A DNA stretch of 64,000 bases. It comes from Stylophora pistillata. Its lineage: Eukaryota. The stretch is taken from contig NW_019217787.1 in the NCBI RefSeq assembly GCF_002571385.2, positions 213,428 through 277,427 of the forward strand, in the 5' to 3' direction. Of this stretch, positions 22,560 through 25,837 are shown piece after piece. Position 1 is the first letter of the stretch. The number at the start of each line of letters is the position of its first letter. Below the pieces are notes generated by a model. It made no database searches. It saw only the letters and a program-made list of their open reading frames with translations, and was not told the DNA's origin. The translations under genes were made by a program, and so were the position numbers.

Positions 22560-23049
22560 CAGCCTCTGCTATTTGGCCAAGAAACGGCGTGAATTTGATC
22601 GTTTTCGTATATACCCGGCATGAAGAGGCCACATACTCTCCCGCTGGCGATAACGTTGAATCCTTCAGTTTAGATTGTTGAATCGATCATAAATGTGATA
22701 TTCCGTTCGGAAAATGACTTATACACGGCACAAAGTACACTTGGCCCCGCAAAAAACCAACTAAATAAGATTTCTGTAGTCTTGAACCGCAGATGTCTTT
22801 ACCTTCCCTTAAGAGTTTCCTGGTTCGTTGCGTTGTTCAAGTTTGAGAGCCTTTTTCCACCACCAGCTCTTCTGGTTGTCGCTCAATAAAATGGCGATGG
22901 GATGGACTCAGCGCTATATATTTCGATCAGCTCTGGTTGTCGCTTCAACAGTTACAACAGGGACGGAGTTGGATCAAGTCATCCTTGTAATCTGTGATAA
23001 TTGTCCCACACTTCTCCAACCCCCCTTATAAAGTGTAATTACCGACAAA

Positions 23050-23393
23050 ATTTAAGACATTCTGTTATGACATTAAGACATTCACTTATGATATTGAGAT
23101 ACTGAGTTATGATATTGAGACATTCAGTCATGATATTGAGACATTCTGTTATGACATTGAGCCATTCACTTATGATATTGAGCCATTCACTTACGATATT
23201 GAGACATTCACTTATGATATTGAGACATTCAGTTATGATATTGAGACATTCAGTTATGATATTGAGACATTCAGTTATGATATTGAGACTTTCTCTTATG
23301 ATATTGAGCTATTCTCTTATGATATTGAGCCATTCATTTATGATATTGATACACGACATACATTCTGTTAAGATATTGAGACATTCAGTTATG
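23050..23393 (+). repeat. 21-bp subterminal array, left arm (about 16 units)
   Basis: Consensus attgagacattcagttatgat; translates as MILRHSV repeats. Confidence 0.95.
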
Positions 23394-23399
23394 CTGTTC

Positions 23400-23745
23400 A
23401 TGGCGGACAACTTACAACGGATAAGAAATCAACTGATCCAGGGACTCGCAACAATTCTTTCGTAGTTGAATGTGGAAAATTTAGAGAACGACCGCCTTGA
23501 TAGCTTTCAGTTTCGTGTTGATTGGATTTATGGTCTAATTGTCAGATATCAAAGACTTGACGTTATCGATGACCGAGTGGTTGCTTGTAAAAGGGAGGCC
23601 AGAGACTGTATTCATAGATCTATTATATGCTCAGGCACACTCTGCAGAGCGGGTCTAACTTTCAACGGCGAGATAAGTAGACCTAGATTTGAAATACCAT
23701 GTGCGCAGTTAGAATTTTTTGTCGAAAAGGGATTTAAAGTTGCGG
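23400..23745 (+). pseudogene. N-terminal fragment of putative transposase / integrase-core protein
   Basis: MADNLQRIRNQLIQGLATILS*(TAG)LNVENLE...GEISRPRFEIPCAQLEFFVEKGFKVA. Resembles the GRPRFxIxxEQLxFL...GF motif before the HTH of such proteins. Has an internal stop and is truncated. Confidence 0.6.
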
Positions 23746-24145
23746 CCTAGACCTGCCTGTTGCAACTTGTTTTTAATGATCTGCTAGGGACTGCCATGTT
23801 CTCTTTATCTGTTAAACAAAACAATTCGTGCGTCCACGTATCTCGTTTGCAGAACACTACTGTTAGGTTCCGTTTCCTTCTTTTAGTAGCTGGAGCTAAC
23901 GATGCCGACGCCAACTGCTGTCTGTTGCTGCTTGAGAAACTAGTTAAACTTTCGCGAGCCGTGTACGGCTGAAGCAACTTTCGAAAAATTTCCAGCACTC
24001 GTCCGTTGGTTTCCCGTCCACTCACTGCACCGGCTACTGCATCGTTCCTTGGAGAACCATTCTCGGGGCCCTGAGATTCATTTTCTCTAATAAGACAGGT
24101 CGCTTCTTCTAATAAATTCACCGCTCTTTCAAGAAAAGCCGCCAT
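23740..24145 (-). pseudogene. N-terminal fragment of a second, convergent transposon gene (resembles N-termini of G2E3-like/HECT proteins)
   Basis: aacATGG start. ...KRDTWTHELFCLTDKENMAVPSRSLK then, after a frameshift, NKLQQAGLGR. No HECT domain is present in the window. Confidence 0.5.
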
Positions 24146-24444
24146 GTTTCCAACAAAGACAGGACGACTGACAGTGGATATATTAACATAATCATAATTT
24201 TGGCGGGAAATAAATTATCTTGACCAAAACTCGTTTCTGAGTGTCATGACGAACTGCATGTTACCATGTCAGAACACCATAATGAAATGCACGCTATGAA
24301 AATGACAATTCACAAAAGCAAAACTATTTGTCCCAATATCGATATTGAAGAAGACAAAAATGAAATGGCAAAAAGCAAAGTCTAAAAGCCGAACGCCAAG
24401 GCAGTGACGAATCAGCTCATTACAAACGCAAATTAGTCAAATTT

Positions 24445-25490
24445 AGTAAGGAAGTAAGTAAAGACTTTATTTAAAGAGGGTAGCACTAAAATAGTAAAAA
24501 ATACTAACAAACCCGTGGCCCTCTAAAACTATGTACAATACGGATGTTAAAAACTATGGCATAACTATGAGATAATAAAACGAATAAAATACAAGAGATG
24601 AGATAAAATCAATTAATAGTACAAATGTATAACTAAATCACAGAATAAAATTATTTTAAAGCAGCTGTTCTTCAAAGAATTTTTTCCAAAGAGAGTTCCT
24701 AAAAGAATTTAGCGACGCTATTTTCCACATGGATAGCGGTGAGCTGTTCCAGGCTTTACAGGCAGTCACAGTAAATGTTCTTCCTCCTTCAGTTTGACAG
24801 TTGATAACAGGGCGAGCAATATTGAAGTTGGCATACCTAGTCTGCCGTGAATGAGTGTCGCTAGTAAGCTTCATTAAACTTTTAAGATAGGTAGGTACAT
24901 GCCCCTGTACACGCTTGTATATAATACAGCATTTAGTTAGTTTAGCATGTTCGAAAAATGGTATCCAGTTTAGTTTATTGAACAGTTTGACCGAGGAGGC
25001 TTGACAATCGGCGTCTAGAATAACTCTAGCAGCCCTTTTCTGCAACTTTAGAACACGGTTAAGGCAATGTTTATCACAGCTCGTCCAAACCACATTTACA
25101 TAATCAATTACCGGTCTTATCATGGCGTTATAAAAAATAAGTCGATGTTTTAGAGGTAGACAATATTAAATTCTCTTTAAAATGCCTATCCGCTGGGAGA
25201 GCTTTTTACTCAATTTCTCCACATGAGGGATGAATGTTAGTTCGTGGTCGATTTCTAGTCCCAAAAGCTTTGCACAACGAACATTCTCAAGTTGTTTTCC
25301 ATTAACAACTACAGCATGGTTGTGGCTAATTCCGGTAGAGAGTCGCTTGCCAGTAATGGTAAGCACTTTTGTCTCGCTCTCATTGAGAGGAAGTTAATTA
25401 GCTGTTGCCCATTGAGTCGACCTCAGAAATTGCTGTAGTGAGTGAACTTTGAAGAACATCAACGGAGTCAAAGTTAGCAGCGGAGGTAAA
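24445..25490 (-). mobile_element. 5'-truncated, decayed L2/Crack-type LINE nested in the DNA transposon
   Basis: LPLNESETKVL...AKLLGLEIDHELTF...IGILKRI*YCLP...FYNAMIRPVIDY...LQKRAARVIL. 3' UTR ends in AATAAA plus a (TTAC)-like tail. Confidence 0.88.
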
Positions 25491-25548
25491 ATATTTAATA
25501 GCATATTGTCATAACACAAGGTCCATCGGTCCCAATAGCACGACTACA

Positions 25549-25725
25549 TATCTCAATATCATAAGTGAATGTCTCAATATTATAACTGAATGTCTGAATA
25601 TCATAACAGAATGTCTCAACATCATAACTGAATGTCTCAATATCATAACTGAATGTCTGAATATCAAAACTGAATGTCTCAATATCATAATTGAATGTCT
25701 GAATATCATAACTGAATGTCTTAAA
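25549..25725 (-). repeat. 21-bp subterminal array, right arm (about 8 units, inverted relative to left arm)
   Basis: Unit atcataactgaatgtctcaat is the reverse complement of the left unit. Confidence 0.95.
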
Positions 25726-25837
25726 TTTTGACGGAAATTACACTTCATACCCCCTGACCGACCTCTCTCTGGGGCCTCTTTGCAGCTCACCATGAGGTTG
25801 AAGATGGATGCACTCTAACGTGATCTACAGATGGCTA

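Follow-up and report, generated by a model that had tools for sequence, protein, structure and literature searches.

A dead IS3EU transposon copy in Stylophora pistillata points to a two-gene parent with a predicted HECT ubiquitin-ligase cargo

Transposons of the IS3EU superfamily are defined by TA..TA (TAY..RTA) ends and usually 6-bp target site duplications (TSDs), and have been united with GingerRoot (PMC10045372). The IS3EU elements described so far have two protein products (PMC8232023, citing Kojima 2019), and the superfamily has been called largely unexplored (PMC11934779). Transposon-borne deubiquitinases and SUMO proteases are also in print, and a role of ubiquitin in transposition has been proposed from OTU and Ulp1 cargo (PMC2836005). 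Here we describe a 2,723-bp transposon copy at positions 23027-25749 of a 64,000-nucleotide window of Stylophora pistillata DNA (contig NW_019217787.1, positions 213,428 to 277,427); coordinates given without a contig are those of this window. The copy is a dead IS3EU element of a new family. In all likelihood it is a non-autonomous IS3EU/GingerRoot deletion derivative, made up of a broken transposase stump, a facing HECT stump and a long interspersed nuclear element (LINE), whose full-length parent was likely moved by a DDE transposase with a helper of predicted ubiquitin-like (UBL), zinc-finger, CUE and HECT domains. We infer this parent type from sister families.

The hexamer CCCCCT stands on both flanks of the copy (23021-23026 and 25750-25755, a direct sequence match), a six-base agreement with a chance probability of about 3e-4. 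Both ends start with TAT (TATAAAG on one side, TATGAAG on the other), and the terminal inverted repeats (TIRs; 23027-23062 on the plus strand, 25714-25749 on the minus strand) are complementary at 33 of the 36 outermost bases. A first-pass annotation of this DNA, made from the sequence alone, had proposed TAT...ATA termini, TIRs of about 35 bp and a perfect 6-bp TSD, all of which are borne out. The two arms share an ungapped inverted match of 221 nt (86%) and carry subterminal arrays of 21-bp units in inverse orientation. Tandem Repeats Finder (TRF) counts 8.1 units in the right array (25551-25724, minus strand) and 14.2 in the left array (23052-23395, plus strand), with one further unit beyond a 15-bp interruption; the sizes first given, about 16 versus 8, were thus roughly correct, the left arm being nearer 15. 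These units are likely to be transposase-binding sites.

Within the arms two genes point inward, as the first-pass annotation had noticed: a plus-strand frame starting at the ATG at 23400 and a minus-strand frame starting at the ATG at 24145 meet at 23740-23745. The left gene (23400-23745) is a pseudogene comprising the first ~115 codons of an IS3EU transposase, with a TAG at codon 22 (23463-23465), and ends just before the helix-turn-helix (HTH). The genome contains 11 relatives of this gene (E ≤ 0.001), and a profile built from three of them scores it at 68.7 bits (E 2.5e-23), the best of 1,000 shuffles reaching 7.2 bits. A search of a large protein database returned five proteins, the four usable ones being 71-84% identical to the left gene and extending through the HTH. 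In particular, P0185 matches it at 83% identity over 116 amino acids and runs on via the HTH to DGNHKLIR, the first catalytic-core motif, in support of the earlier view of this gene as a transposase N-terminus. P0184, 99% identical to the left gene, was dropped as a homologue, being the same copy read through its stops. A Pfam scan of the two window stumps gave nothing significant.

The right gene (23740-24145, minus strand) is likewise a pseudogene and, judging by homologue alignments, holds the first ~135 codons of a cargo HECT ligase: an N-terminal helix, a basic KRRKR cluster and the first third of a predicted UBL domain. The HECT domain itself is deleted from the window copy. The motifs first noticed in this gene, TWTHxxFCL and LQQAGLGR, are both there but lie in different frames, on account of a -1 frameshift in the T run at 23770-23774. 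The gene is 71-80% identical to three database proteins, and the stump aligns to the 796-aa protein P0174 (E 5e-11). When these three proteins were combined with genomic relatives into a profile, it picked up a protein from Porites and a 655-aa one from an octocoral, named as a 'G2/M phase-specific E3 ligase'. The conserved domain of the right gene comprises 893 clusters at 50% identity.

Both genes stop at one deletion junction, the hexamer TTGCGG at 23740-23745. Past the left stump, four homologues continue V-A-E; past the right stump, two of four continue G-R-K and the other two G-R-N and G-C-K. TTGCGG satisfies both homologue readings, four of its six bases being fixed by the codons of each side. 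Because both readings are met across the hexamer, a microhomology-mediated internal deletion is likely, and the collapse proposed at first pass agrees with the homologues on both sides. The junction is not an assembly artefact, since contigs of all four DNA-type runs (two studies) bridge it without differences. Two other copies of the family, C87 (152531-154785) and C317 (49880-54756), break 6 bp short of the window junction, and a +1 change in them offsets the shared -1 frameshift; the database protein P0001 is also without five residues at that site. The frameshift/junction region is possibly a fragile site.

Sister elements of 5-12 kb, in which an rva_4 transposase faces a HECT gene, suggest what the parent looked like. 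One of them (C95:7591-14886; 7,296 bp) has TATGAAG ends, a perfect TSD (CTCTTG) and 21-bp arrays, and contains a homologous transposase N-terminus and an rva_4 core (E 2e-52), as well as a HECT C-lobe (E 2e-6) and a homologue of the WTH..CL domain. Its core motifs agree by eye with IS3EU-1_CVi and similar rows of the PMC10045372 supplement; together with the TAT ends and 6-bp TSD of the window copy, this upholds the original assignment to IS3EU. At C95, C35, C291 and C614, a single element combines a homologue of the right-gene domain with a HECT C-lobe. In addition, the C95 family has a 3,320-bp deletion derivative, C470, with a parallel two-stump anatomy. A near-complete 7.3-kb element at C35:543627-550940 (L101-L102) has a perfect TSD and 21-bp arrays of 12 versus 19 units; a SAM-like domain may stand at the start of its second gene (by eye), and related Atlas clusters carry SAM_1.

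The pairing of the two genes recurs across the genome. Ten of 46 HECT loci (condensed from 83 hits) lie within 5 kb of an rva_4 match, all ten convergent, where ~0.35 would be expected, counting the best 150 of 373 rva_4 candidates and with some pairs belonging to the same family and so not independent. Among 20 rva_4 regions that were fetched (10 picked for HECT, C95 for the N-terminus and 9 by transposase score alone), 16 have a HECT C-lobe opposite the transposase, always convergently (16/16); in the nine chosen by transposase score, it is present in five. The ends behave likewise: among 31 regions, 13 related elements have both TATG ends, with a TSD that is perfect in eight and has one mismatch in three. 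In transposase-bearing relatives, a period of 19-22 bp dominates the subterminal sequence at 18 of 22 ends, paired ends of an element not being independent of each other, whereas the same holds for 40 of 400 control windows. Also seen were short palindromes in which the start of an IS3EU gene is followed by its inverted copy (G000 C582:141514-142181, C458:125358-126049 and C548:32890-33650); these either arose from related families by foldback or are artefacts of the assembly.

The cargo protein has the architecture N-helix, basic cluster, predicted UBL domain, C2HC finger, CUE and HECT. PF00632 is above cut-off at the C95, C20, C385, C555 and C597 loci and in proteins P0174, P0177, P0157 and P0161; complete HECT domains occur within single open reading frames (ORFs) in element copies, and the catalytic Cys is retained in 15 of 16 element C-lobes. 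Among 17 long N-domain proteins CUE is found at E < 0.05 in five, and four of five further members of the right-gene domain clusters have a full HECT match together with CUE. The cargo occurs in cnidarians, and two of its clusters, in Hydractinia and Porites, are multi-copy at 90% identity. A first fold of the N-domain from 11 sequences was poor, with a predicted local distance difference test score (pLDDT) of 54; a model on the homologue L117 from 118 sequences reached pLDDT 94.7. Its best structural match is the UBL domain of TBK1 (Z 8.0, root mean square deviation 2.6, 81 residues aligned), and nearly all of the 50 structural matches listed are ubiquitin-like, RA, UBX or FERM domains. Foldseek with this model gave no match at E ≤ 0.001, and sequence searches of the PDB with cargo proteins gave none. 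The N-domain is described here as a predicted ubiquitin-like beta-grasp fold.

The right gene had been likened at first pass to the N-terminus of a G2E3-like HECT protein. The HECT-ligase part of that proposal stands, but the gene is not true G2E3: a ubiquitin-like fold is predicted, and no PHD or RING Pfam match was seen in 22 long cargo homologues, which argues against a G2E3 orthologue. In all three cargo proteins checked, the cysteines before the HECT domain are too few for G2E3-type fingers. The 'G2E3' label on cargo homologues stems from database annotation.

Comparison of cargo genes shows purifying selection between families: synonymous sites are saturated and dN, the nonsynonymous divergence, is 0.35-0.77, and the window ligase gene compared with L117 gives an omega (dN/dS) of 0.15. 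Two copies of one family give an omega of 1.2 on 83 codons. Such a contrast is usual for element genes, which are selected while they transpose and evolve neutrally thereafter. In a tree of HECT C-lobes, 20 element-type sequences lie on one side of a branch and nine host sequences on the other (support 75/90; 80% of bootstrap trees), four of the 20 element rows being labelled by homology only and 7 of 16 host regions having been dropped for want of the motif. All 20 element C-lobes score best against another element-type row.

As to the origin of this HECT domain, the predicted-structure score of the cargo HECT is 1473 against the chordate G2E3 cluster and 1389 against a Neuralized-HECT cluster, versus 833-911 against NEDD4, HACE1, SMURF1, AREL1, HERC4 and UPL5. 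It is possible, on these modelled structures, that the chordate G2E3 HECT domain derives from transposon cargo; capture of the cargo from an older, since-lost host gene fits as well. The Stylophora pistillata genome has five zf-HC5HC2H hits, none on a contig with a HECT hit, and G2E3 is reported to have originated after the chordate/echinoderm split (PMC2837046). A chordate Atlas cluster of 58 members combines Neuralized with a HECT of cargo/G2E3 type and is a second candidate domestication. A broader proposal, which we put forward as conceivable and on balance doubtful, is that animal IS3EU elements carry their own HECT as a standing second gene, forming a large uncatalogued E3 lineage, that the chordate G2E3 HECT (perhaps also Neuralized-HECT) was domesticated from it, and that published 'G2E3 expansions' are transposon copies.

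For the window family itself, a 32-base end pattern has 10 matches genome-wide, all with TAT, and its reversed control has none. Two-ended copies are the window copy (2,723 bp), C87 (2,255 bp), C317 (4,877 bp) and C256 (738 bp); single ends are the right end at C161, with no left end within ~20 kb around it, and one end at C1782, likely the other haplotype of C317, their flanks being nearly equal. Three of the four two-ended copies (window, C317 and C256) have a perfect 6-bp TSD, in line with what the first-pass annotation expected of other TIR-bearing copies. All of the two-ended copies found are internally deleted, with N gaps within C87 and C317. These two carry the window's ligase stump at 89-91% identity, and frameshifts and stops occur in all three copies. 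Array size varies widely among copies, up to ~33 units in C317. The full-length copies with DDE and HECT domains that the first-pass annotation sought were not met with in this family: own-genome DNA, pattern and protein searches gave deleted copies or other families only, these searches being lower bounds in an assembly with many N gaps, and a metagenome scan gave one locus of 2.9 kb, not full-length. Both domains are present in the sister families.

Several observations weigh against reading the window copy as the remnant of a transposase-plus-ligase element. The absence of a full-length family member from what was found means that the DDE-HECT link comes from sister families, at 30-55% protein identity. 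Four of the 20 rva_4 regions are without a HECT C-lobe hit (one at a contig end, one a 2.4-kb deleted copy, two with gaps), and of the 17 long proteins with the N-domain, just four score above the Pfam cut-off for HECT. Two of the 13 related two-ended elements are without a matching 6-mer, and the C87 TSD matches at four of six bases. The empty site with a single CCCCCT, sought as a further check, was not among the joints listed for the four DNA-type runs. The split between host and element C-lobes is below the starred support level and rests on fewer than 100 alignment columns. Additionally, distances among the transposases agree weakly with those among the HECT sequences (Mantel rho 0.23, p 0.04, with near-duplicates counted in), behind which may lie exchange of cargo between families or low resolution.

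This weak agreement of the two trees would suit a HECT gene that is a passively captured host fragment without a role for the element, in the style of Pack-MULEs or Pack-GingerRoots, and in a clubmoss 22 of 77 GingerRoot copies do contain pieces of host genes (PMC6839031). Passive capture is nonetheless quite unlikely, given the constant place and orientation of the gene (16/16 convergent), the whole HECT domains in single ORFs with the Cys kept in 15 of 16, the purifying selection between families, and a C-lobe comparison in which none of the 20 element-type sequences is closest to any of the nine host HECTs. If the ligase were instead mainly beneficial to the host, as a domesticated or defence-related E3 that the transposon merely spreads, the many annotated and apparently intact copies in Porites and Hydractinia would be explained, and HECT ligases are established as ordinary host regulators; yet the omega of 1.2 (one 83-codon pair) points to neutral decay after insertion, and the window, C87 and C317 copies have frameshifts and stops, which makes this view very unlikely.

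The minisatellite arms raise another alternative, a Foldback/Galileo/Mutator-type element in which the arms are the defining part and the gene stumps incidental. The unequal inverted tandem arrays are real, reaching the ~33 units of C317, but the TAT ends, the 6-bp TSD and the rva_4/IS3EU-type transposase stand against such an element, as does the 19-22-bp periodicity at 18 of 22 transposase-bearing ends versus 40 of 400 controls; we hold it to be extremely unlikely. TSDs are 9-10 bp in FB and MULE elements and 7 bp in Galileo. The two-gene IS3EU parent with a HECT ligase as its own cargo is thus the reading that we retain.

For such a parent the following sequence of events may be proposed. 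The transposase would bind the TIR and the ~21-bp subterminal units, which, at two helical turns, would offer phased sites, and cut-and-paste by the DDE enzyme would insert the element with a 6-bp stagger. The middle of the window copy would have been lost by microhomology-mediated repair at TTGCGG; the copy would have been mobilised in trans, and its mobility has now probably ended. The ligase is predicted from its sequence to act in the nucleus, given its basic cluster, and to be catalytically active, given the retained Cys; having a UBL domain and two modules that likely bind ubiquitin, it might extend ubiquitin chains and send proteins to the proteasome. As its target we tentatively favour silencing or chromatin proteins of the host at the element; spent transposase is a less probable candidate, and DNA-repair signalling slightly less probable again.

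Other features of the locus concern the right arm and its surroundings. The LINE insert, absent from the first-pass annotation, occupies 24445-25491 (minus strand), that is 1,047 bp or 38% of the element, and comprises the end of ORF2, the 3' untranslated region and a short TTAC tail. The repeat has at least 43 matches in the genome (best 40 of 130 candidates scored). It is taken as a 5'-truncated LINE because a 93% identical copy elsewhere shares its short tail and, upstream, continues into motifs of reverse transcriptase. The segment 24146-24444 (minus strand), upstream of the ligase gene and partly common to the family copies C87, C256 and C247, would be the promoter of that gene.

Contigs from poly(A) libraries cover the gene junction at depth 9-12, the contigs giving neither strand nor level. 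In all four runs such contigs show a minus-strand intron at ~26735-26964, and in two they run across the right end of the element, which lies in or just beyond the 3' end of a host transcript. This spliced transcript (25756-29488, minus strand) ends near or within the right arm; judging by a motif, its coding exons resemble COG1, unconfirmed by Pfam or PDB, where searches gave the neighbouring host gene no name. To the right of the element, at 25836-25988 and from 27426, lies a short, extremely high-copy repeat (summed contig depth in millions), probably a SINE or MITE (short interspersed or miniature inverted-repeat element). Elsewhere in the window are a long frame with two KH domains and a RING finger (14763-16452, minus strand), presumably a MEX3-like gene, a RecQ zinc-binding domain exon of a RecQ helicase gene (57611-58126, minus strand) and a reverse-transcriptase fragment of another LINE (8528-9322, minus strand).

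That IS3EU elements have two proteins was already known (PMC8232023); our analysis gives the second one a concrete identity and a domain map with a predicted UBL domain, and adds a within-genome census, ~21-bp arrays as a common trait and the G2E3 lead. Full-text literature searches gave no report of HECT cargo in a transposon; Repbase entries and Kojima 2019, which lay outside their coverage, may name the second protein. The term HECT does not occur in the main text of PMC10045372, PMC11934779, PMC12730594, PMC6839031, PMC6431247 or 10.1101/2021.09.26.461848, and no transposon-encoded E3 ligase of any kind was found in the literature searched. The window copy is itself dead and ordinary, and its importance lies in the parent type, which offers a direct test of an older idea, namely that transposition is aided by the ubiquitin pathway. 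Caution in annotation is also called for, as multi-copy 'G2E3-like' genes may be transposon cargo. In a hadal sea cucumber, the presence of G2E3 in 20 copies has been interpreted as a DNA-repair adaptation (PMC9700323), and in a fish a G2E3 match lies among unclassified repeats with raised copy number (PMC5638112); IS3EU cargo may explain some of the reported animal 'G2E3 gene expansions'. If the G2E3 HECT does come from this cargo, it would add a new example of a vertebrate gene that was assembled from a transposon gene other than the transposase.

Together, these features place the parent type among known systems as follows. With IS3EU/GingerRoot it shares the TA..TA ends, the 6-bp TSD, an N-terminal HTH, corals among the hosts and an IS3/IS481-related DDE core without the HHCC motif (PMC10045372, PMC6839031), as well as two genes, convergent in the window and at 16 of 20 related loci. 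It differs in that the second protein, left unspecified in the IS3EU passages of these sources, is here a predicted UBL-C2HC-CUE-HECT ligase, in its ~21-bp subterminal arrays, which the same passages do not mention, and, for the window copy, in being dead with a LINE inside; fungal IS3EU elements carry alpha-kinase and TET/JBP genes instead (PMC12730594). Like the Foldback elements FB and Galileo, the window family has long inverted arms that consist of tandem units and differ in size between ends and from copy to copy, but with a 6-bp TSD and an rva_4 transposase. Among named host subfamilies, chordate G2E3 comes closest to the cargo HECT in predicted structure, and it is a source of the database name; G2E3 clusters, however, have PHD_G2E3 and zf-HC5HC2H, whereas the cargo is without both and has a predicted UBL, C2HC and CUE in their place. 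Finally, ubiquitin- or SUMO-pathway enzymes thought to assist transposition are also carried by the DNA transposons Ginger1, Mutator and Helitron, in the form of OTU or Ulp1 proteases. These proteases take off ubiquitin or SUMO, and Ginger1 has them fused to its transposase (PMC2836005), whereas the IS3EU cargo is a separate, convergent gene whose product is predicted to add ubiquitin.

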